Below are positions 2,058-24,082 of a stretch of DNA of 36,128 bases, piece by piece. The position numbers were made by a program, and so were the translations under genes. Where the stretch lies: positions 1 through 36,128 of the forward strand of contig CAZSTA010000011.1 of the NCBI GenBank assembly GCA_964609495.1, in the 5' to 3' direction. The notes under the pieces were generated by a model that was given only the letters and a program-made list of their open reading frames with translations, was not told the DNA's origin and made no database searches. Position 1 is the first letter of the stretch. Every line of letters starts with the position of its first letter. Source of the stretch: an uncultured bacterium (lineage in GTDB: Bacteria > CAZSTA01).

Positions 2058-3557
2058 ATGAATATGCTAAATAAAATAGTTCTCGGTATTATCATTGTGG
2101 CTGTTATCTTAAATGTTACTACTAGCTATGCGAACTCGGAAAGATATACTGTTCAGGTGGGAGCTTACCAGGAGTTAGCGATGGCTCGCAGTATAGCTAT
2201 AAAACTTTTGAAGGACAAATACTCAGCCTATTTAGAGATCGTTGATTTTGAGGATGGAAAGAGGGTCTATCGCGTGCGAGTTGGCATCTTCGATAATAGG
2301 ACGGAGGCTGAAAAGGTGGGGGGGGAGCTTAAAGCGAAGTTCGGCTATAATTATTTCGCAACTCCAGTGATAACTGAAAAGGAACTGGGGGAGGGAAAAG
2401 TGCCGAAAGAAGCTGGAGTACTCAAGATATCACGGCGAGTTCCCACTCCCTTGTCCGGGGAATTGGTCTTAGCCGACAGCAGAATGGTAGCGGATTTTCA
2501 ACACAGTAATTTTACCGACTTTCAATGGTCTCTCAATGGCGATAAGATCCTCTTCGAGAAGCAACAAGGTGATATAAGCTCTCTCTGGCTGGTGGATATG
2601 AAGGATATCGGCACCAAGCAATTAACCGATAAGGGGAGTAAGAAATTCTCCTGGTCACCAGACGGAAAATATGTTCTCTATCTGGAGGGAACAAAGGAAA
2701 AGATCGATTGGTTCGATATCTCAGTAGTGGAGATAAAGAGTGGAGAGAAGAAGAGGCTCACTATAAAGGAGGAGAACGTTAATTGGACGGTTGATGAACC
2801 CTCTTGGTCACCAGATGGGAGCAGAATAGCCTATCTTTATCGCCCTAGGTTAACTCAGCCTCTCAATGGCTGTGATCTTTGGACGATGGATAGCGATGGG
2901 GGGAATAAATTGCTCCTCTCTTATGAGGATGATGGGATAACTGCATATAGTTGGTCTCCAACCGAGAAGGAATTGCTATACGAGAAGCTCAGGAGGATAG
3001 ATGGGGATAGACTCGTAAGAAATATCTGGAAGATGGACGCAATGGGAGTGGATAAGAGAGATCTAACTGATTTTCCCAGAGATTCCTATAAAGCCCTCTG
3101 GTCTCCATCGGGAACTAAGATCGCTTATATAATGGAGAGGGGAGTATGGACTATGAACTCCGATGGTAGCAATAAGGCGATTTTAGTTGCGGGAAGTGGA
3201 GATATATCCTTCTCCTGGTCTCCCGCAGGAGATAGGTTAGCTCTTCTATTCCCTTCGGAATTGTGGACTATAAGGACTAATGGGGAGGATAAGACTCTCC
3301 TAGCCAAAGGTAAGATCTTCTATTCCTGGTCTCCTACGGGAGATCGAATAGGCTATCTAGTCGTCAATGAGAATGGCGTTGAGGTTTGGATAGCTGACGA
3401 TGATGGAAAGACGAGAACTAATCTCATCACTAAAAGAGGATTTACAACTTCTTGGGCTCCCCGCTGGTCTCCCAATGACAATGAGATCGCTATTATCCTA
3501 GAGGCGAAAGGGACTAAGGAACTAAAATTGCTTGTGCTGAGCTTGGGATGGAAGTAG
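2058..3557 (+). CDS. Exported SPOR-domain protein with TolB/PD40-type beta-propeller
   Basis: Signal peptide; SPOR motif YTVQVGAY...YRVRVGIFDNRTEAEK; eight WSPxG-like blade motifs. Confidence 0.85.
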   Translation: MNMLNKIVLGIIIVAVILNVTTSYANSERYTVQVGAYQELAMARSIAIKLLKDKYSAYLEIVDFEDGKRVYRVRVGIFDNRTEAEKVGGELKAKFGYNYFATPVITEKELGEGKVPKEAGVLKISRRVPTPLSGELVLADSRMVADFQHSNFTDFQWSLNGDKILFEKQQGDISSLWLVDMKDIGTKQLTDKGSKKFSWSPDGKYVLYLEGTKEKIDWFDISVVEIKSGEKKRLTIKEENVNWTVDEPSWSPDGSRIAYLYRPRLTQPLNGCDLWTMDSDGGNKLLLSYEDDGITAYSWSPTEKELLYEKLRRIDGDRLVRNIWKMDAMGVDKRDLTDFPRDSYKALWSPSGTKIAYIMERGVWTMNSDGSNKAILVAGSGDISFSWSPAGDRLALLFPSELWTIRTNGEDKTLLAKGKIFYSWSPTGDRIGYLVVNENGVEVWIADDDGKTRTNLITKRGFTTSWAPRWSPNDNEIAIILEAKGTKELKLLVLSLGWK

Positions 3558-13048: not shown

Positions 13049-16000
13049 ATGGCAGCTGTTACTAAATCTGAGCAAAACTTTGCTTTGCAGATTTTGAATA
13101 TTTTCGATACCTTTCGATATAAAGGAAAGGGATATCTCGAATATCTATCTCATATAAAGAGTAGAGACGAATTCCGTATTCGGCAAGGAATCACCATACC
13201 CCTTTTAACTATATTGGGGTATGATCCCCAAAAAGATATAGATCCTGAGGTACCAGTTCCTTCAGGACAGGTAGATCTCTTAGTCCGGAATAATCTTCAT
13301 CGTCCACTTATTATAATTGAGACAAAAGCCAGCCTTCTTACTGATCTTATCCCTGAGCGTCCACAGCTTCACTCTTATATTGATGATCTTAATGCTCCTT
13401 TAGCTATTTTAACTAATGGACGCACTATGGAAATTTTTACTGTTAAGGGTAAAGTGAAGAATCTCTCCCTAAGCATTAACTTTGTAGATATTTACAGGAG
13501 GTTTAGTATAGGAGGGATTGAAGCTTTAACTGAAAAGGACTGGGATAAGTTTATTAAATTAAAATTTCTCTCCAAGGATTTTCAGGCAATCGATGAAGAG
13601 AAACTATATATTATACCAGAGAATGATATTTCCGAGGATGTCCACTTTTCTGCTCTCCTAGAAGCTCTACAACGGATTATGGAACTGACCAAGGCAGAAG
13701 TAATGGATCAATTTGATATTCTCTCGGAGCAGGTTAGAGAGTATAAGGAGATGATCGCCTCTGGCGCAAAGTTTTACCCTCGTGAGCAGAGGAAATACGA
13801 AAATGCACTGAAATTTGATAAAGCTTATCAAGAGTGGCAGAGGATATCTACAACTAATAGCAAAGGTAAGGAGTTCTTCTGTATAGAAACGATGTATATC
13901 CTCTTTAATCGTATACTTTTAATTCGTATATGTGAGGATAAGGGAATTATCCACCGGCAAATATCTAATGGGGGGATCAAACGTTGGAGGGAGTGGAAAG
14001 GCTTCTCCCAATTCTCTAAGATTAACTATGCCGAACTATTGAATTCAACTTATAAAATGATGAACGAGGTCTATCCTCATCTCTTTCATCAGGATATCTT
14101 CGATTGGTATACTCCTTCGAGCGAAGTCATTCTGCGCATCCTCTTTATCTTTAATTATTATAACTTTGCTAATGTGGATAGAGATATATTAGGAAAACTT
14201 TACGAGAAATATCTAGATAGAGAGGAAAGGAAGAGATTAGGTCAGTTTTATACTCCTGAAGAGGTTGTAGATTATATCCTAGATTCAGTTGATTATAAGG
14301 TGGATAGGGAAATAGAGGGCAAACTACTTTTAGATCCTGCTTGTGGTTCAGGTGGATTTTTGGTGCGAGCCATGAATCGCTTAGTAGATAGATACAGGCG
14401 GAAAGGATTAAGTGCGGATAGTATTTTAGATAGAGTAAGAGATTGTATTTACGGTTTCGATATTAACCCTTTTGCGGCTCATATTGCCGAAATGAATCTG
14501 CTCTTCTCAATTATAGATTTGATAAGCGAGGCGAGGAGAAGAGACCCCGATTTCAAGATAGAAAGATTAAATATCTTCGTGACGAACTCGCTTAAATCTC
14601 CAATTAATAGTAATAATCAATTATATTTGTTAGGAGATATCACAAGCGAGTTTCTGGAGGATGCCTTGATAGTTAGGGATATTAAGTTGAGAAGAGGTAA
14701 ATTTCAAGAGGGGTTCGATTTTGTAGTGGGGAATCCACCCTACGGGGCTAGTTTTACAGCAAGGGAAAAGCAAGAATTTAAAAGTATTTTTAGAACTCCT
14801 GAGGGAGAAGTTGACAAGTATGGATTGTTTATTGAGCAAGGATTGAATTTTTTGAAGGACAATGGTTATCTTGGCTATATAGTTCCTAATACATTCTTGA
14901 CTAATATTTTCTTCACAAAGTTAAGACAGTTACTGTTAGAAGAGACCAGAATCTTGGAGATAGCAGATCTTCTTAATCTAAAGATCTTTAAAGATGCAAC
15001 TGTAAGCAATGTTATCCTGATAATAAACAAGGAGGAAGATGAAGACTCAAGAGCTAAAAATAAAGTGAGGATTAAAGAAATAATATCCACTGAAAAAGAG
15101 GAATTAAATTTGAATTTAAAACATCTGTGTTCTCAAAAACAATGGATCTCAAATAAGTCCTATAGTTTTAATATTTACTTAGATGATAGAAAGCTAGATT
15201 TAATTCAGAAAATCAGAAGTAGTGCTATCCCTCTTGAAAGGATAACAGATACAGTATTTGGAGTGAAAGTTTATCAGGTTGGGAAAGGAAACCCGCTCCA
15301 AAGCAAGGAATGTTTTGATAATAAAGTTTTTAATTCTACATATCAAAAGGATGCTACTTTCAGACCATTTCTAGGAGGTAAAGATGTAGGAAGATATCTT
15401 ATAGATTGGAAAGGAAATTGGGTGAGTTATGGAAAATGGCTCGCTGAACCCAGACAGCCAAAATATTTCACGTCTCCTCGTTTGGTAATTCGGCAAATCA
15501 CTAGCAGTTCCCAAAATTGTATATATGCTACTTTTACTTCTGAAGATTTCGTGGTTAGTAATGCAGCAGCAGTTATTCTACCATCTGATCCCGATTTTGA
15601 TATAAAGTTTCTACTAGCAATTATAAACTCTCCTTTAATATCTTTCTATTTCTTAAATACGTCCTCGAATGCTCAGAAAATTGCTTTCCCTAAGTTGAAC
15701 TCGAAAGATATTCGTAGTTTTCCTATTAGGTCAACATCCGCTGAAAATCAAGTTGAATTCAAGGCTTTAGTGAATGAAATCTTAGAGATCAACAATAACA
15801 TACAGAGGATAGAAACTCTTGCCGATAATATCCCTGCTATAATATCTTCGGAGTCCATTCCTACTAGCTCTCTCGCGGATGTCCCGCAAATAAGATTTGA
15901 AGTCCCCAATAAGATTCGGAAACCTAGAATAAGAGTTAAACCTGAACAGGATAAATTCAAAATCTATCTGGATTCCAAACAATATATTGAATGCGGAAAT

Positions 16001-16267
16001 CAACCTCTAGCAAACTACTTAGAGATATATCTAAGAGCATTGGGAGAAGATTTGAGAGGGAAAGATCTGGATAAACTAATTAAATTGATAGAGATTCCTC
16101 GAACACCTGAACTTATTCAAAAAGTATTAGATATACGAAAAGCATTGCTAGAAGATCTAGAACGATTAAGATCAAGAAGAGATGCGATAGATAAGAAAAT
16201 AGATGACAAAGTTTACGAATTATATGGGATAACCCAAGAAGAGAAAAAACTTATAGAAGGGAAATAG
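13049..16267 (+). CDS. Type IIG fused restriction endonuclease/N6-adenine methyltransferase
   Basis: PD-(D/E)xK nuclease VD...IETKA; GQFYTP; motif I LDPACGSGGFL; motif IV GNPPY; TaqI_C-like region FLLAIINSPL. Confidence 0.9.
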   Translation: MAAVTKSEQNFALQILNIFDTFRYKGKGYLEYLSHIKSRDEFRIRQGITIPLLTILGYDPQKDIDPEVPVPSGQVDLLVRNNLHRPLIIIETKASLLTDLIPERPQLHSYIDDLNAPLAILTNGRTMEIFTVKGKVKNLSLSINFVDIYRRFSIGGIEALTEKDWDKFIKLKFLSKDFQAIDEEKLYIIPENDISEDVHFSALLEALQRIMELTKAEVMDQFDILSEQVREYKEMIASGAKFYPREQRKYENALKFDKAYQEWQRISTTNSKGKEFFCIETMYILFNRILLIRICEDKGIIHRQISNGGIKRWREWKGFSQFSKINYAELLNSTYKMMNEVYPHLFHQDIFDWYTPSSEVILRILFIFNYYNFANVDRDILGKLYEKYLDREERKRLGQFYTPEEVVDYILDSVDYKVDREIEGKLLLDPACGSGGFLVRAMNRLVDRYRRKGLSADSILDRVRDCIYGFDINPFAAHIAEMNLLFSIIDLISEARRRDPDFKIERLNIFVTNSLKSPINSNNQLYLLGDITSEFLEDALIVRDIKLRRGKFQEGFDFVVGNPPYGASFTAREKQEFKSIFRTPEGEVDKYGLFIEQGLNFLKDNGYLGYIVPNTFLTNIFFTKLRQLLLEETRILEIADLLNLKIFKDATVSNVILIINKEEDEDSRAKNKVRIKEIISTEKEELNLNLKHLCSQKQWISNKSYSFNIYLDDRKLDLIQKIRSSAIPLERITDTVFGVKVYQVGKGNPLQSKECFDNKVFNSTYQKDATFRPFLGGKDVGRYLIDWKGNWVSYGKWLAEPRQPKYFTSPRLVIRQITSSSQNCIYATFTSEDFVVSNAAAVILPSDPDFDIKFLLAIINSPLISFYFLNTSSNAQKIAFPKLNSKDIRSFPIRSTSAENQVEFKALVNEILEINNNIQRIETLADNIPAIISSESIPTSSLADVPQIRFEVPNKIRKPRIRVKPEQDKFKIYLDSKQYIECGNQPLANYLEIYLRALGEDLRGKDLDKLIKLIEIPRTPELIQKVLDIRKALLEDLERLRSRRDAIDKKIDDKVYELYGITQEEKKLIEGK

Positions 16268-16347
16268 ACTATCTATAAGCCCTCTTCATCACCTTCAATG
16301 TAATCCACTTAGAAGGAAGATCGGTAATCAAAAATCGGTGGCGAAAA

Positions 16348-17214
16348 ATGGAAGTATGGTATAAAATAGTAAATGAAGATTGCCTTGAATTTCTTGATAA
16401 GTATTCAGAGAGAAATATTCACCTTACTTTCATTGATCCCCCTTTCAGGCAAGGAAAAAATTACAGATTCTTTGATGATTCTCAGCCAGAGAAAGAATAC
16501 TGGAATTGGCTGAAAGAAGTATTGTTGAGAGTCTATCGAAGGACAACTGAAGGAGGGGCTATTTACTTTATGCAGAGGGAGAAAAACACTGAAAGTGTTT
16601 TAAGAGCGCTTAGAGAGACAGGATGGACATTTCAAAATCTGATTATCTGGAGGAAAAAGACATCGGCAGTCCCTTCTAAGTTCAGATATTCTAAACAATA
16701 CCAAATTATCGCTTTCGCTACTAAGGGAGAAAAACCGAGAGTGTTTAACAGACTCCGTATAGATTTGCCAACACCGCCAGAGTATAAACATAGGAGAGAC
16801 AAGGGAGTGTATCTTACGGATGTATGGGATGATATCAGGGAATTAACCTCGGGATATTTTGCTGGTGATGAAGCGATAAGGGATCCCAAAGGGAGCAGAA
16901 TTCATACCCAGCAGTCTCCAATCGCTTTACTTTTGAGGATTATCCTATCATCTACTTTGCCCGATGATATAGTATTGGATCCCTTTGCTGGCACAGGAAC
17001 TACGGCGGTAATCGCCTATCAGCTAAAACGAAACTCAATAAGTGTAGAGATAGATCCTAAATATGTCGAGATTATCGAGAAGCGTCTAAATAACCCGAGA
17101 TCAGCGGATAGTATCTTGAAATTTTACAATTATTACCGATATACAGAAAACTTAAAGGAAATCTGGCCTAGTGAAGAAATATCTATGATTAGTGAGCAGG
17201 GGATATTGTTTTAA
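16348..17214 (+). CDS. Beta-class N4/N6 DNA methyltransferase
   Basis: Motif IV DPPF precedes motif I VLDPFAGTGTT; NLIIWRK, DVWDDI. Confidence 0.9.
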   Translation: MEVWYKIVNEDCLEFLDKYSERNIHLTFIDPPFRQGKNYRFFDDSQPEKEYWNWLKEVLLRVYRRTTEGGAIYFMQREKNTESVLRALRETGWTFQNLIIWRKKTSAVPSKFRYSKQYQIIAFATKGEKPRVFNRLRIDLPTPPEYKHRRDKGVYLTDVWDDIRELTSGYFAGDEAIRDPKGSRIHTQQSPIALLLRIILSSTLPDDIVLDPFAGTGTTAVIAYQLKRNSISVEIDPKYVEIIEKRLNNPRSADSILKFYNYYRYTENLKEIWPSEEISMISEQGILF

Positions 17215-17226
17215 GGCTATATAATA

Positions 17227-17255
17227 GGGCTATACAGCTTCATTCTGTATAGCCC
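17227..17255. terminator. Hairpin between convergent genes, probable bidirectional terminator
   Basis: GGGCTATACAG-cttcatt-CTGTATAGCCC, 11-bp perfect stem; no clear U tract. Confidence 0.55.
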
Positions 17256-17277: not shown

Positions 17278-17622
17278 CTAAAGGCTTGCCCTGATCTCAT
17301 CAAGGGTGCTCTTGGCGTCAGGCACCATATCAAAGAATTTCACTAGCTTGTCGCAAGCATAATCATCACAGTAAGCACAATTTTTGACGCTCCTTCCCAG
17401 AGCGCACGACCTTATTTCACAAACGTTGCAGTATCCAAAAAGTCGTCCATTTTCTGACAAACATCCATCGCAGTTAATATCCCCTGGTTTAATATCTTCG
17501 TTGAACTCTTTCGACCACAACTCAGCGACTTTCTTCCTTTCGTTATCATCATCTTTTTGAGTGGCAATGAATGCCGGGCATCCGGTACAGATTAATCCAC
17601 AAAAGGCAATCATCTTATCCAT
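17278..17622 (-). CDS. DUF3795 family Cys-rich protein
   Basis: IAFCGLICTGCPAF...CDGC...CEIRSCA...NCAYCDDYACDKL; RBS AAGGAG. Confidence 0.88.
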   Translation of the reverse strand: MDKMIAFCGLICTGCPAFIATQKDDDNERKKVAELWSKEFNEDIKPGDINCDGCLSENGRLFGYCNVCEIRSCALGRSVKNCAYCDDYACDKLVKFFDMVPDAKSTLDEIRASL

Positions 17623-17693
17623 AGTATTTATCTCCTTTCATTTTATTTTTATCATCCGCAGGATCGGCTCTTAACTTGATCGGATACGAAAGC

Positions 17694-20519
17694 TTAGCCA
17701 GAATGATTCAGCACTCTCTCTAAGAAATCTCCAGTGTAAGAGGTTGGATGTCGCATAACCTTCTCGGGAGTCCCCTCAGCGACTATCCATCCTCCTTCGT
17801 CTCCTCCCTCGGGACCTAGATCGATTATGTAATCCGCAGTCTTTACCACATCTAAGTTATGCTCGATCACTAGGACGCTATTGCCGGCATCGGTCAGCCT
17901 TCCCAATACATCCAGCAACTTATGAACATCAGCGAAGTGCAGACCTGTCGTTGGCTCATCTAATATGTATAATGTCTTACCAGTGCTACGTTTCGAAAGC
18001 TCCGTCGATAGCTTGACTCGCTGCGCTTCACCTCCCGATAGGGTAGTAGCTGACTGACCTAGCTTTATATACCCTAATCCCACATCATATAAGGTCTGCA
18101 AGATTCGCTTTATTCTAGGGATATTCTCGAAGAACTTCAGAGCTTCCTCGACCGTCATATCTAATACCTCGGAGATATTCTTCCCCTTATATCTTATCTC
18201 CAAAGTCTCTCGATTATACCTCTTACCCTTACAAACTTCACAGGGAACATATACATCGGGTAGGAAATGCATCTCGATCTTGATGATCCCATCTCCTCGA
18301 CAAGCTTCGCATCTCCCTCCTTTGACGTTAAAGGAAAATCTTCCCACTTTATATCCCCTTATCCTTGCCTCTGGCACTCGGGAGAATATCTCTCGGATAG
18401 GGGTGAAAGCTTTGGTATAGGTCGCAGGATTAGAACGAGGGGTTCGTCCAATAGGGGATTGATCTATGATAATGACCTTATCGAGATGCTCGGCTCCAAT
18501 GATATAATCATGATCTCCCGGCTTAGCCTGAGCCCGATGTAACTTTCGGGCTAGAGCCTTATGTAATATATCGTTCACCAGCGAACTCTTTCCCGATCCA
18601 GAGACTCCAGTTATGCAGGTAAATACTCCTAGGGGAATTCTGACATCGATATTTTTCAGATTATTATGTCTAGCACCTTTGACCGTTAGCCATTTATCCT
18701 TTATAGGTCTTCTCTTCTCGGGAACTTCTATCTCTAGCTCTCTCTTCAGATACTTGCCAGTGATCGATTCGGGACAGGAAGTTATATCCTCTATCGATCC
18801 AGTTACTACAATACCACCCCCGTGGATTCCAGCACCCGGTCCCATATCAACTATGTAATCCGCGGTTCTTATCGTCTCTTCATCATGCTCTACCACAATT
18901 AGGGTATTCCCTAGATCACGCAGTCTCTTCAGAGTCGCTAGAAGCCTCTTATTATCACGCTGATGAAGACCGATACTCGGCTCATCGAGGATATAGAGGA
19001 CTCCCATCAAGCTCGATCCGATCTGTGTAGCTAATCTGATCCGTTGGGATTCTCCTCCCGAAAGGGTCGCTGCCGCTCGATCCAGCGTCAGATAATCCAA
19101 TCCTACGTTCACCAAGAAGCCCAATCGCTCTCTTATCTCCTTCAATACTTGATGAGCAATGATCATATCTCTTTCGCCGAGTTTGAGATCGGTGAAGAAA
19201 TCCAAAGCCTGCTTTATCGACATCGCCGAGACATCCACGATCGATCTACCCCCGACTGTCACCGCAACGCTCTCGGGACGAAGTCGCTTACCACCACAGG
19301 CAGGACAATCCCGAACGCTCATAAATCCCCTGATCCAATTTCGTATCCATTCCGAGCTCGTCTGCCGATAGCGCCGAGCTAAATTATTATAAGCACCTTC
19401 AAATCTTCCGGTGTACTCCCCGTGACCTTTTCCGTTCCTATGTTGATAGGTGAATCTTATCTCCTCTCTACCCGAGCCATAAACCAGAACCTCTTGAGCC
19501 TTTTTGCTCAGTTGCTCAAAGGGAGTGTCCAAGCTGAAGTTATAGTGACGAGCGACCGTCAAGAGGTGTTGATGATGATTATTGATCTCTCCCCAAGAAG
19601 CGATAGCTCCCTCCCCCACCGAAAGGCTCTTATCGGGAACGATAAGGTCTGGATCTAACTCCATCTTTTCTCCTAGCCCACCGCATTCTGGACATGCTCC
19701 GAAGGGGCTATTGAAGGAGAACATCCTGGGGGTGAGCTCCTCGAAGTTGATCCCACACTCTATACAGGTGAAATGCTCGCTGAAGGTCAGTTCCTCCGAA
19801 CCAACCACATCTATTTTGACTATCCCCTCTCCGAGATCTAAAGCGGTCTCCACCGAATCGGCTAGGCGGTTTCTGATCCCATCTTTAATTACGAGCCTAT
19901 CAACTACTACCTCGATAGAATGCCTCTTATACCTATCAAGCTTCATCTCTTCATCCAAGCTTCGAACTTCGCCATCCACTCTGACCCTTACATATCCCTC
20001 CCGGCGAATATCCCCAAATATCTTCTTATATTCGCCCTTTCGCTCCCTCACCACTGGAGCTAGGATTTGAATCCTGCTATCCTCAGGTAACTCCAAGATC
20101 TGATCGATTATCTGAGTGGCGCTCTGTTGAGATATCTCTCTTCCACACTTGTAACAGTGAGGGATACCAATTCGAGCATAGAGCAACCTCAGATAATCAT
20201 ATATCTCGGTCACCGTCCCAACTGTGGAGCGAGGATTCTTGCTGGTCGTCCTCTGATCTATAGATATAGCGGGAGATAATCCCTCGATATAATCTACATC
20301 GGGCTTCTCCATCAAGCCTAGGAATTGGCGCGCGTAGGACGAGAGCGATTCTACATATCTACGTTGTCCCTCGGCGTAGATCGTATCAAAGGCTAGGGAG
20401 GATTTACCAGAGCCACTCAAACCCGTGATGACGATGAGTTTATCCCTGGGCATCTCGAGATCGATGTTCTTCAGGTTATGCTCTCGCGCTCCTTTGATAA
20501 TTATCTTATCAGTAGCCAT
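17694..20519 (-). CDS. uvrA: Excinuclease ABC subunit A
   Basis: GAREHNLKN, two Walker A motifs ([16 protein letters not shown]), LSGGE signatures, zinc fingers. Confidence 0.99.
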
Positions 20520-20563
20520 ATATAAATGATACCTCCATTACTAACTGGAGTGATTATTCCACC

Positions 20564-22615
20564 CTAAGATTTAGCTATATAATTATGCCTCCTTCGTTTA
20601 TTCTTTCCTTTAGTCTGATGATAGACCTCCTTTGCCTCATCCAAAGTTCCCTTAAGTTCAGCGATTAGATCTCTCAACTCCGCCGCTCGCTCGAACTCCA
20701 GCCTACGTGCCGCTTCCTTCATCTCCTTCTCTAACTCATCTATCGTTGAGGCGATCTCATCCTGAACTAGATAGCTACCTCCAGCTTCCCTGACCATATA
20801 AGCTAGATCGGGATCAGCCTCGGGGGTGGTCTCTATTAGATCGCGGATCGACTTAGTGATCGTTCGAGGAGTGATGTTATGCTTGCGATTGAACTCCATC
20901 TGAACCTTGCGACGCCGATTAGTCTCATCTATAGCCCTCTGCATCGAATTTGTCATTCTATCAGCATAGAGGATCACTTTACCGTTGATATTTCTCGCGG
21001 CACGACCCATAGTTTGGATAAGCGATCTCTCCGCTCTCAAGAAGCCCTCTTTATCAGCATCCAGGATAGCGACCAGTGATACCTCGGGTAAGTCCAATCC
21101 CTCTCGCAGTAGGTTAATCCCTACCAAGACATCGAACTCACCTAATCGTAGATCTCGCAGAATTTCTACTCTATCCAAAGTGTCGATCTCCGAGTGCAGA
21201 TAACGAACTTTAACCCCCAACTCAGCCATATAATCGGTGAGGTCTTCCGCCATCCTCTTAGTCAGGGTGGTAACTAATATTCGCTCATTCCTCTTTACTC
21301 GTTCCTCGATCTCTAGGAGAAGATCGTCTATCTGGCTCTCAGTGGGCTTGACCTCCACCTCGGGATCCGTAAGACCAGTGGGGCGAACTAACTGCTCAAC
21401 TATCTGCTTGCTCTTCTCAAGCTCATAGGGGCCAGGGGTCGCGGAGGTGAAGATCACTTGATTTATATGTTTCTCGAATTCCTCGAAGTTAAGAGGTCGG
21501 TTATCATAGGCTGATGGTAGCCGGAATCCATATCTAACCAGATTATTCTTACGGGAGCGATCTCCAGCCCACATCCCATTAACCTGAGGAATGGTGACGT
21601 GGGATTCATCTATGAAGAAGAGATAATCGTCGGGGAAGTAGTCGATCAGGCAAAAGGGCGGTTCTCCTTCTGCCCTTCCGCTCAGATGACGAGAGTAGTT
21701 TTCTATACCTTGACAATATCCCATCTCTCTAAGCATCTCTATATCATATTTTACCCTCTGCTCTAGACGTTGAGCTTCGACTAACCATCCTTTATCATAT
21801 ATCTCCTTGAGTTGCTCCTCCAGTTCCTTCTCAATAGAGCGCACCGCTCGTTCTAACTTCTCTTGAGGAGTAGCATAGTGGGAAGCTGGATATATAACCT
21901 CTTCCTCGACTTCCCTTAAGATCTCTCCCGTTAAGGGATCGAATTCCACTATTCGCTCGATATAGTCTCCGAATAGCTCGACCCGAAACGCACTATCCGC
22001 ATAGGCAGGAAAGATCTCGACCACATCTCCCCTAGCTCGGAAGGTCCCTCTGCTGAAATCGATATCGTTCCTCTCATATTGAAGCAAAGTCAGCTCATGC
22101 AAGATCTCTTCTCGCTTCTTATCAGTTCCTACAGCTAGAGGGATATTCATCTCCATATAATCCTCGGGAGGGCCCAAGCCATAGATGCAAGAGACGCTAG
22201 CGACTACGATCACATCCCTCCTAGTTACCACCGAGTGAGTGGTGGAGAGGCGAAGCTTATCCAATTCCTCGCTTATCGAGTAATCCTTCTCGATATAGGT
22301 ATCGGTATGGGGGAGGTAGGCTTCTGGTTGATAGTAGTCATAATAGCTCACGAAGTATTCCACCGCATTATGGGGAAAGAACTCCTTGAACTCGCTATAA
22401 AGCTGAGCGGTCAGAGTCTTATTATGTGCTAGAACTAAGGTCGGCTTCTGGACAGCCTGGATGATATTAGCCATCGTGAAGGTCTTACCCGAACCGGTGA
22501 CTCCTAATAGAGTCTGATATTTATATCCCTCCTTAACTCCCTCTATCAACTTCTCAATAGCTTGAGGTTGATCTCCTTTAGGTTTATAATCAGATATCAA
22601 TTCAAACTTAGTCAT
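20564..22615 (-). CDS. uvrB: Excinuclease ABC subunit B
   Basis: [36 protein letters not shown]-terminal UVR motif [11 protein letters not shown]. Confidence 0.99.
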
Positions 22616-22618
22616 GTT

Positions 22619-23599
22619 TTACCTCCCAGCTTTCTGATATATATCAATTATCTTCTTGCCTTCCTCAACTATCATCTCTCTTAAATCCTCAGGCTCTATA
22701 ATCTCAACATGTCCTCCCCAACTTAAGACATAGCCCATCCAATATCCTAAATCGTTTTTCGGTATGGAGAGCGAAAGAATCACTCCTCCATCCTCCGTAT
22801 CCCTTAAACTTTCTGGTTTATTCACCCAGCTATCTCTTATCCACTTTGCCACTTCGGAGTCGAACTTGAACCTTGCTCCGATTCTTTCCTCCCCGCTTAG
22901 GAATTTATCCATTTGCTCGATATGCTCTCTTATCGAGAAATCGGGTGGGAGCTTGAATCTGTTCTCTGCTAGGGATAACTCTCGAATACGATCGACGCGG
23001 AAGAACCGGATATCATCTCTCCAGTGGCAGTATCCCACTAAATACCAAACCCCATTCTTATAAAACATCCCATAAGGATCAACCTTCCTGGCTACGATCT
23101 CATCTCTACTAAAGGTATAATATACCATCCATACCGAGCGCTTTTTTATGATAGCTTGATTAATAACAGAGAGGGTATGAGTAAAAGCGGAGTAATTAAT
23201 TCGAGGGTGAATATCGAAGGCTATCTGACGCTCTATTTCATAGACATAATCCTTAATATCTTCAGGGAGAATCGCTTCTATCTTCAGAAGTCCGGTCTTT
23301 ACCGCCTCTCGATAGGGAGTTCCCTCCTGACCAGCGATTATCTTCCCTCCTAAAAATAGAGCTGCCGCCTCCTCGGAGGTAAACATAACTGGAGGCAAGT
23401 TATAACTCTTCATAATGCTATAGCCACCATTCGGGCCAGGGAGGGAGATTATAGGAATGCCAGCAAGCATAAGGGATTGTATATCTCTATATATCGTTCT
23501 CTCCGTGACCTCGAAGGTCCTGGCTAATTCCTCAGCTCTCATCTGAGAACGGGAGCGTAGCAGTAATATGATCGCCATTAATCTATCGGTCTTGTTCAT
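22619..23599 (-). CDS. YafY/PafC-type WYL-domain transcriptional regulator (wHTH-WYL-WCX)
   Basis: ELARTFEVTERTIYRDI; GGY; VWYLVGYC...RFFRVDRI; VLSWGGHVEIIEP; ATG 23599 preferred over TTG 23608 on RBS spacing. Confidence 0.95.
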   Translation of the reverse strand: MNKTDRLMAIILLLRSRSQMRAEELARTFEVTERTIYRDIQSLMLAGIPIISLPGPNGGYSIMKSYNLPPVMFTSEEAAALFLGGKIIAGQEGTPYREAVKTGLLKIEAILPEDIKDYVYEIERQIAFDIHPRINYSAFTHTLSVINQAIIKKRSVWMVYYTFSRDEIVARKVDPYGMFYKNGVWYLVGYCHWRDDIRFFRVDRIRELSLAENRFKLPPDFSIREHIEQMDKFLSGEERIGARFKFDSEVAKWIRDSWVNKPESLRDTEDGGVILSLSIPKNDLGYWMGYVLSWGGHVEIIEPEDLREMIVEEGKKIIDIYQKAGR

Positions 23600-23621
23600 G
23601 ATCTTCAACCCCCTACCCTAT

Positions 23622-23643
23622 ATTATACCATAAAATGCTGACA
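23622..23643 (-). promoter_or_regulatory. Promoter of the WYL-uvrBA operon: extended -10 plus -26-type element
   Basis: Minus strand TGTCAG-CATTTTATGG-TATAAT; no consensus -35 at 17 bp. Confidence 0.7.
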
Positions 23644-23655
23644 ACGTTATGTCAG
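23638..23655. promoter_or_regulatory. Palindromic operator, probable WYL regulator site
   Basis: CTGACA-acgtta-TGTCAG, 38 nt upstream of the WYL start codon. Confidence 0.7.
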
Positions 23656-23757: not shown

Positions 23758-23846
23758 ATAACTGTGGATTTAGAGAGCAGATAGTAGATTGGAATCTCCA
23801 TCACTTTGAAGCATATGAAATCTGGGCTCTAATTTGCTTTGCATTA

Positions 23847-23953
23847 CACCCTCCCCCTATCCCCCTCCCATCGAGGGAGGGGGGAACTAAAGAGATCAGC
23901 TCTATCTTGCTATCCCCTCTCCCCTTGTGGGAGAGGGCTAGGGTGAGGGGGAA
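23847..23953 (-). repeat. Paired boxC/triplex-motif-like element, copy 2 (inverted)
   Basis: Reverse complement matches both arms of copy 1; different spacer. Confidence 0.9.
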
Positions 23954-24082
23954 TTATAATTCGATCTGAAATCAATTTGATCCCCGATTCTATATGCATC
24001 CCCATCACTTTATAAAATAAGGTGAAGAATGCGGATGTCCGATTTTATCTCGGTTAAATCTTTTATAGCTAGGTTAGTTTTA

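Follow-up and report, generated by a model that had tools for sequence, protein, structure and literature searches.

We analysed a stretch of 36,128 nucleotides from an uncultured bacterium (contig CAZSTA010000011.1), called the window throughout. On its minus strand the gene for a WYL-type transcription factor heads an operon with uvrB and uvrA, the recognition genes of nucleotide excision repair (NER), and with a gene for a DUF3795 protein. The promoter of the WYL gene carries a palindromic box, CTGACA-N6-TGTCAG, at a fixed distance from its -10 element, and the same box recurs before other genes of the source genome and beside WYL homologues elsewhere. In our assessment the WYL protein is probably a sensor of the PafBC/DriD/SiwR class that, switched by single-stranded DNA (ssDNA), would act as an autoregulated activator of WYL-uvrB-uvrA-DUF3795 and of four other promoters. 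The circuit points to a known kind of LexA-independent damage switch in new wiring. Published work is cited by PMC number.

Along the minus strand the genes are separated by 3 nt (WYL-uvrB), 44 nt (uvrB-uvrA) and 71 nt (uvrA-DUF3795), and a consensus scan found no convincing terminator or promoter between them. The WYL stop codon (TAA, 22621-22619) is parted from the uvrB start (ATG, 22615) by the bases AAC, and the uvrB ribosome-binding site (RBS), GGGAGG, lies inside the WYL gene, where it overlaps the GGAGGT named in a first-pass annotation of the window; uvrA starts at 20519, after the uvrB stop at 20564. On these points of layout the first-pass annotation was correct. It had lacked the DUF3795 gene, the 18-bp box, and the ATG at 23599, which is a likelier start of the WYL gene than the TTG at 23608. 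The upstream neighbour of the WYL gene, a cytidylate-kinase-like/BON gene, is divergent, so that there is no read-through into the operon from outside. At the other end a terminator-like hairpin follows DUF3795, which is probably the fourth gene of the operon; the hairpin was passed over by the terminator scan, its tail having fewer than five T in eight.

Pfam assigned three domains to the WYL protein, HTH_11 (residues 6-60, E = 1.3e-13), WYL (142-208, E = 7.7e-26) and WCX (240-317, E = 1.3e-12). UvrB reached 1073.6 bits against TIGR00631 (equivalog cut-off 750.1) and UvrA 1503 bits against TIGR00630 (equivalog cut-off 729.8). In the assembly of the source genome (G000; 3.78 Mb, 99% complete) a single match to uvrB was found and a single match to uvrA above the cut-off, the other 35 being ABC ATPase fragments. 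Because each gene is the sole copy in the genome, uvrB and uvrA are housekeeping NER genes and not accessory paralogues. The best UvrB matches in the protein collection came from Bacillota and Chloroflexota, at no more than 69% identity.

Table 1. Features of the WYL-uvrB-uvrA-DUF3795 operon (window coordinates).
Feature	Position	Strand	Basis
18-bp operator CTGACATAACGTTGTCAG, arms CTGACA/TGTCAG, 6-nt spacer	23638..23655	-	genome-wide pattern search
Extended -10 element TGgTATAAT	23622..23630	-	sequence inspection
WYL gene, transcription factor of order winged helix-turn-helix (wHTH)-3-helix-bundle-WYL-WCX (YafY/PafBC class), 326 aa	22619..23599	-	Pfam, PDB search, AlphaFold2 (AF2), Foldseek
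uvrB RBS GGGAGG, within final WYL codons	22622..22627	-	sequence inspection
uvrB, sole genomic copy	20564..22615	-	NCBIfam/Pfam and genome search
uvrA, sole full-length genomic copy	17694..20519	-	NCBIfam/Pfam and genome search
DUF3795 protein, 114 aa, 11 invariant cysteines	17278..17622	-	Pfam; homologues beside WYL homologues
Terminator-like hairpin, 11-bp stem GGGCTATACAG/CTGTATAGCCC, 7-nt loop, tail TATTATAT	17227..17255	-	sequence reading

The box ends exactly 10 nt upstream of the extended -10 element, counted to its TATAAT. With the hexamer set at -12 to -7, the box spans about -40 to -23 and its promoter-proximal arm TGTCAG occupies -28 to -23. No -35-like hexamer is found 16-18 nt upstream of the -10, where the box itself contributes the bases ATAACG, and the only hit of the consensus promoter scan at this promoter, CTGACA-17-TATGGT, is part of the box. 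Across the 3.78 Mb of the genome there are three exact consensus sites (one of them in the window), one site with one mismatch and one with two. All five have the form CTGA(C/T)ATAA(Y/G)(G/A)TTGTCAG and stand exactly 10 nt before TATAAT. Apart from the WYL operon they precede genes for a TIGR03916-like radical-SAM/HhH 'DNA modification/repair' protein (318.6 bits; the cut-off, 343.5, is narrowly missed), a 75-aa open reading frame (ORF) of no family, an Adenyl_transf-like nucleotidyltransferase, and an aldo/keto reductase with a 4Fe-4S domain. Two of these promoters, C262 (L189) and C80 (L190), are near-duplicates, and the independent promoters were accordingly counted as four. The first-pass annotation named uvrBA as the regulator's target; the regulator is not confined to it, as four other promoters carry the same box. 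DinB or VOC genes were found behind none of the five.

A sixth promoter, on contig C172, has the box with a 7-nt spacer and lies after the second WYL gene and before cas10d/Csc3. In all six promoters TGTCAG is followed after 10 nt by TATAAT, and in every case a TTGACA-like hexamer is missing from the position 16-18 nt upstream. The combination TGTCAG-N10-TATAAT occurs seven times in the genome, against 0, 1, 2 and 2 occurrences with spacings of 8, 9, 11 and 12 nt. One match, on contig C23, was set aside as a box promoter on account of its canonical TTGACA-17-TATAAT. A wider regulon read from the half-site only was also considered and rejected; TGTC[AG]G-N10-TANNNT gave 30 matches, compared with 23-46 at other spacings, and since the half-site is not enriched only full boxes were counted to the regulon.

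The gene on C172 (L003:1051-2043; next gene 2062-3197) encodes another WYL-WCX protein, a paralogue with 26% identity to that of the window, and is followed by CTGACA-N7-TGTCAG-N10-TATAAT and, at the contig end, by cas10d/Csc3 (TIGR03174, E = 5e-22). This paralogue looks like a regulator of a CRISPR type I-D system that uses these half-sites at a spacing one base wider, and cross-talk between it and the uvrBA regulator is conceivable.

The box travels with the WYL family. Homologues of the window protein were collected as the best 160 loci, 80 from species genomes and 80 from metagenomes, at 28-40% identity, and a box was scored as the palindrome with a 6-nt spacer, at most two mismatches in the 12 arm positions, between -300 and +400 nt of the WYL homologue. 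By this measure 82 of the 160 loci, from many phyla, have a box, whereas control spacers of 5, 7 and 8 nt gave 7, 3 and 7 loci. Counting only the 300 nt before the WYL gene, there were 20 matches versus 4, 1 and 3 for the control spacers. A further 128 matches lay outside that upstream stretch, 66 of them within 400 nt past the WYL stop, and 53 of the 128 had TANNNT at a distance of 10 nt, directed toward the next gene. Certain homologue boxes, for example in a Paenibacillus record (L053), are identical to the box of the window. Over 401 genomes the full pattern was found at 16 places in 9 genomes, and a reversed control pattern at 2 places.

Of the 70 ORFs downstream of these boxes, 56 were scanned with Pfam. 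The 14 left out comprised four that were the WYL gene itself, seven near-duplicates and three whose weak boxes were not in the intergenic sequence flanking the WYL gene (one was in the gene itself, two about 5 kb downstream). Among the 56 were 20 ORFs of glyoxalase/bleomycin-resistance type, 18 of the DinB family, 8 without a family and 10 others, which include 3-methyladenine (Tag) glycosylase, HIRAN, Cas3, GyrI-like, SnoaL and ABM proteins.

The nearest relatives of the window protein in the tree, on four metagenome contigs (L104-L107) and 37-39% identical, carry a variant box, TTG(C/T)CATACAG-N-AGTCA(T/C)A, in their own promoters, 9 nt before TATAAT (TATACT in L105). In L108, which is 36% identical and was not placed in the tree, the box lies after the WYL gene and ahead of a type I restriction-modification system.

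The protein itself resembles the ssDNA-sensing WYL regulators. A sequence search of the PDB returned PafBC (6sj9, E = 5.5e-26) as the nearest solved structure, followed by PafC (7e-12) and PafB (4.1e-11); the match to DriD was limited to the WYL-WCX part (E = 1e-3). In the alignment the GTC-reading arginines R46/R50 of PafB correspond to R34/R38 of the window protein. PafB residues R181, Y196, R204, R208, R211 and R214 correspond to R171, Y186, R194, R198, R201 and R204, all conserved, and R201/R204 of PafC, which also bind ssDNA, fall within the same conserved set. These residues of PafB and PafC are reported to bind ssDNA (PMC11804915), and the alignment is consistent with the first-pass suggestion that the protein may sense ssDNA. 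The AF2 model (predicted local distance difference test, pLDDT, 88.5) shows a wHTH domain, helices at 75-90, 97-110 and 113-125, and then a WYL and a WCX domain; for DriD the 3-helix bundle (3HB) is described as residues 79-133 (PMC13004042). In Foldseek searches with this model DriD (4.7e-16) and PafBC (7.6e-16) led, and the repressors CapW and BrxR came lower, at 1e-9 to 1e-8.

From these observations the following mechanism is proposed. The WYL protein, presumably a homodimer, would bind the palindrome CTGACA-N6-TGTCAG with its two wHTH domains, so that the promoter-proximal TGTCAG would come to lie in the position of the '-26 element' of PafBC promoters and the box would substitute for a -35. 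Single-stranded DNA arising from damage processing would bind the WYL/WCX module, and the ssDNA-bound protein would recruit or adapt the housekeeping RNA polymerase. One transcript, WYL-uvrB-uvrA-DUF3795, would be activated, and the level of the WYL protein would rise with it (positive autoregulation); with the sensor gene first in the operon, activation would reinforce itself. Autoregulated co-expression of WYL with uvrBA, as the first-pass annotation had put forward, remains the simplest reading of a box that stands in the regulator's own promoter and co-occurs with its family, and of a uvrB that abuts the WYL gene. WYL control of NER genes has precedents in the reported 37% decrease of the uvrB transcript in Mycobacterium smegmatis lacking pafBC (PMC5656591) and in the DdaA box predicted at Acinetobacter uvrA (PMC13010146).

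LexA was looked for both at the operon and in the genome. The first-pass annotation had reported no LexA box upstream of the operon, in agreement with our searches, in which CTGT-N8-ACAG was absent from the window, exact GAAC-N4-GTTC was present only at position 27, and the latter pattern with one mismatch had seven window matches with none upstream of the operon. Its claim of LexA independence thus stands for the operon, but it does not extend to the genome, where a check for lexA found the gene on contig C25 (214.8 bits) with a Cheo-type box of its own. The lexA promoter, TTGCTA-17-TGtTATAAT followed by CGAACTTATGTTCG, is this organism's example of a normal promoter with a Cheo-type LexA box (CGAAC-N4-GTTCG). 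Five perfect Cheo boxes occur in the genome, one of them at lexA, and none of the other four is at a recognisable repair gene; they lie before a DnaC/IstB-like ATPase, before a PD40 protein, inside queH and in an amidohydrolase/RsgA intergenic region. Two of the box promoters, those of the radical-SAM gene and the 75-aa ORF, also have a degenerate Cheo-like box about 18 nt upstream of the WYL box, CGAAAGATTGTTCG (C262:3905-3925) and CGGAAAAATGTTCG (C80:6950-6970), and may be regulated by LexA and the WYL factor together.

Several results weigh against the proposed switch, and some of them make the case for an alternative. The first concern how rarely the arrangement recurs. The first-pass annotation had proposed a search for WYL-uvrB-uvrA synteny, and we carried it out with UvrB and UvrA of the window as tblastn queries; in 134 of the 160 loci the sequence continued downstream of the WYL match for 1 kb or more. 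UvrB was beside a WYL homologue at none of the 160 loci, nor at any of 19 loci from other genomes (60 'relatives' genomes), and UvrA at two of the 160 (L026, L132). The adjacency was thus absent from all other loci examined; measured by the condition that the first-pass annotation itself had set, synteny lends no support, which comes from the promoter boxes instead. The closest WYL homologue was just 43% identical, and among the 400 genomes compared the nearest relationship to the organism was 'same domain'; together with the low identity of the best UvrB matches this means that close relatives stand outside the synteny comparison. Further, neither a LexA nor a WYL box was found within about 400 nt upstream of recA (C10:25450-25860) or uvrC (C75:7950-8360), so the WYL circuit is not a full damage regulon.

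The box was found at uvrB in a second, unrelated genome. An intersection of uvrB and WYL coordinates over 400 genomes, with 150 of 401 uvrB places among the matches listed, was used only for this genome (G372). In it one of the 16 places of the pattern search over 401 genomes, an exact box plus TATATT, stops 6 nt short of the ATG of uvrB, and the WYL orthologue (38% identity) is on a different contig; its other two boxes precede an ABM-DinB-glyoxalase operon and a RibD_C-DinB operon. Since this uvrB (L195:4628-4670, C28) starts 6 nt past the -10-like TATATT(TG), its mRNA under the WYL box would be leaderless. A box before uvrB was present in one of nine genomes examined of the same family, which also counts against the switch and makes the uvrB-box link sporadic rather than conserved. 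On Anaerolineales-like contigs a third arrangement is seen, the related operator ATGACR-N4/5-(C/T)TGACAW-N10-TAT(A/G)(C/G)T beside a WYL homologue, preceding uvrA (L026, L132) and DUF3795 (L132, L122). The linkage of WYL, uvrA/uvrB and DUF3795 in three lineages by three wirings argues for a functional connection, yet for sporadic rather than ancient recruitment. In a tree of 129 WYL homologues the window protein was on a long branch outside the DUF3795-linked clade; neither a donor nor an order of events can be assigned.

The alternative that survives best, although it is a good deal less likely than the activator, is that the WYL protein is a CapW/BrxR-style autorepressor sitting on the box over -40 to -23 and released by ssDNA, so that damage would derepress the operon and the four other promoters. 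Promoters with TATAAT and an upstream TG can be active with neither a -35 nor an activator, and CapW and BrxR, both WYL repressors, typically have an autoregulatory box in the promoter of their own gene. All six promoters here have a perfect TATAAT, and five have TG one base upstream (the exception, C172, reads TTTGGTATAAT), so they are potentially independent of a -35 and also fit a repressor. The window box, too, is in the promoter of the regulator gene, CapW is described as an ssDNA-sensing WYL repressor (PMC11662680), and the paralogue with the N7 box precedes cas10d, a defence context in which the described WYL type is a repressor. Against this, the 10-nt spacing is strict in six of six promoters and the geometry is identical to that of activator-dependent PafBC promoters, the protein has a 3-helix bundle, and its modelled fold is nearer to that of DriD and PafBC, with CapW and BrxR further off; we therefore favour activation over repression. 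The genotoxic-stress WYL factors described to date are, according to PMC10693628, activators.

Activation of the operon might also answer to another signal. The usual targets of the family are DinB and VOC/bleomycin-resistance genes, and the regulator could sense a genotoxic or xenobiotic chemical, or some other nucleotide ligand, and serve a detoxification set into which uvrBA was swept in only in this lineage. The predominance across phyla of detoxification-type genes behind the box speaks for such a signal, as do the aldo/keto reductase and nucleotidyltransferase among the targets in the source genome and the report of one WYL factor that senses c-di-GMP (PMC11880434). We nevertheless consider it unlikely, as all six ssDNA-contact residues of PafB are conserved, SiwR, with the same kind of targets, is reported to bind ssDNA (PMC10693628), and DNA-repair targets do exist (Tag glycosylase, HIRAN, the TIGR03916-like radical-SAM protein, uvrA and uvrB). 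Very unlikely, finally, is an incidental adjacency, in which another factor would read the box, or the box would serve WYL autoregulation only, and uvrBA would be transcribed for the most part from a constitutive promoter within the WYL gene. In its favour, no other locus examined has the adjacency, NER requires basal expression and a promoter-like match (ATGATA-17-GATAAT, 22675-22647) lies 32 nt before uvrB, but that match scores 9/12, a class no commoner than chance (13 found, 12.6 expected in shuffles), and the 3-nt gap, the RBS inside the WYL gene, the lack of a terminator, the co-travel of box and WYL gene in 82 of 160 loci and the box directly on uvrB in G372 all stand against it.

A bolder extension of the ssDNA-switched activator, which the first-pass annotation had in part suggested, is a self-amplifying circuit. 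UvrABC excision yields oligonucleotides of 12-13 nt (or gaps), and these might be the ligand of the WYL protein and feed back on uvrBA and the sensor. PafBC is reported to be activated by short ssDNA of 6-12 nt (PMC11804915). In Escherichia coli another pair of ssDNA-sensing regulators is reported to require uvrA and uvrB for its induction by mitomycin (PMC13373217), which lends the idea of an excised-oligonucleotide signal some plausibility. The DUF3795 protein, whose gene shares its regulation with uvrA in two distant lineages, might in such a circuit be a new NER accessory factor, for example a damage or redox sensor with an Fe-S or Zn centre. That the WYL protein responds to excised oligonucleotides is conjecture, and we regard the extension as a whole as improbable.

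The first of the cysteine motifs of DUF3795 is CX3CX2C. Homologues adjoin WYL homologues at L122, L125, L132 and L155; at L125 the DUF3795 gene is divergent from the WYL gene, and at L155 it comes immediately behind a gene for an aldo/keto reductase with a 4Fe-4S domain that has 51% identity to the regulon member in the source genome. NCBIfam gave no match, the Atlas yielded DUF3795 clusters only, and an AF2 model from five sequences (pLDDT 66.7) had no Foldseek match with E below 5. The locus singles DUF3795 out as a candidate damage-response protein.

The surroundings of the operon contain two further features. Genes for a type IIG restriction-modification fusion (Eco57I/MmeI-like, 1072 aa) and an N6/N4 DNA methyltransferase (288 aa) occupy 13049-17214 on the plus strand and converge on the operon end. 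Upstream of the operon the intergenic region (window 23840-23960) is filled by G/C-rich hairpin repeats, CCCTCTCCC-loop-GGGAGAGGG, of a family resembling repetitive extragenic palindromic sequences or miniature inverted-repeat transposable elements (REP/MITE-like), with about 200 copies on 136 contigs of the source genome. The same repeat type lies upstream of uvrC (C75:7990-8100), and a similar element adjoins the close WYL homologue of metagenome locus L106.

WYL proteins that sense ssDNA, with PafBC, DriD, SiwR and DdaA, are emerging as a second great DNA-damage switch of bacteria beside LexA. The present locus provides a natural example in compact form, the sensor gene and the sole NER recognition genes sitting in one operon of a genome that keeps LexA. 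It also gives evidence that one widespread YafY/WYL clade (with records from Chloroflexota, Bacteroidota, Bacillota and Acidobacteriota) employs a single box at DinB and bleomycin-resistance-like genes, and that uvrB or uvrA came under this clade on at least three occasions. A full-text literature search, with most subscription journals outside its scope, turned up no account of a WYL gene transcribed together with uvrBA, of the box CTGACA-N6-TGTCAS, or of a link between DUF3795 and NER.

Among known systems, CapW and BrxR share with the window protein the wHTH-WYL-WCX architecture, autoregulation and, for CapW, ssDNA sensing; they are shorter (chains of 266-289 residues), match its fold less well and stand before defence operons, a placement that fits the C172 paralogue and not the window gene. 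Bacillus-type bacteria have a uvrBA operon under LexA. The order uvrB-uvrA is the same there, and the LexA of the present genome uses the Gram-positive Cheo-type box, but the window operon has no LexA box and has a WYL gene and a WYL box in the regulatory position.

Closer likenesses are found with the WYL activators. DriD and DdaA are homodimeric wHTH-3HB-WYL-WCX activators, switched by ssDNA, that bind a palindrome over the -35 position, at a fixed distance to the -10, of promoters without a -35; for DriD the site is described as a pseudo-palindrome (PMC13004042). They differ in their box, CGAC-N7-GTCG as against GAC-N8-GTC in the window, in their key targets, which are small cell-division inhibitors and recA/ssb, and in that the regulator is not co-transcribed with NER genes. 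N7 versions of the window box are found at the cas10d promoter of the paralogue and in the Anaerolineales-like clade. SiwR is described as a homodimeric ssDNA-binding activator with a palindrome between -35 and -10 and an essential -26 region (PMC10693628). Its target spectrum, DinB superfamily genes with, in some species, glyoxalase-like neighbours, is that of the homologues of the window protein (38 of 56 ORFs), whereas its box has GGA and not GTC at -26, its described targets are adjacent dinB-like genes and not NER genes, and the window regulon lacks DinB and VOC genes; the comparison with SiwR is one of published descriptions.

The closest system is PafBC, whose promoter consensus is reported as tGTCgg(N10)tA(N3)T without a -35, with the PafB HTH contacting -23 to -28 (PMC8635444). 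Shared with it are the domain order, the GTC-reading arginines (R34/R38 for R46/R50), the ssDNA-binding residues, and the geometry TGTCAG-N10-TATAAT without a -35, with TGTCAG exactly at -28 to -23; PafBC is also reported to influence uvrB (PMC5656591). PafBC, however, consists of two paralogues as a heterodimer (or of their fusion), and its genes sit with pafA in the Pup-proteasome locus. It reads a single half-site, its PafC HTH touches sigma, and it governs about 150 genes. The window system has one gene, a full palindrome and about five promoters, and it heads uvrBA; the paired chains of the PafBC type are replaced by a lone 326-aa gene between the cytidylate-kinase-like/BON gene and uvrB, the only other WYL gene of the genome being the one before cas10d. 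With its PafBC-like -26 geometry and its full palindrome, the operator would form a bridge between the heterodimeric mode of PafBC and the homodimeric mode of DriD and SiwR.

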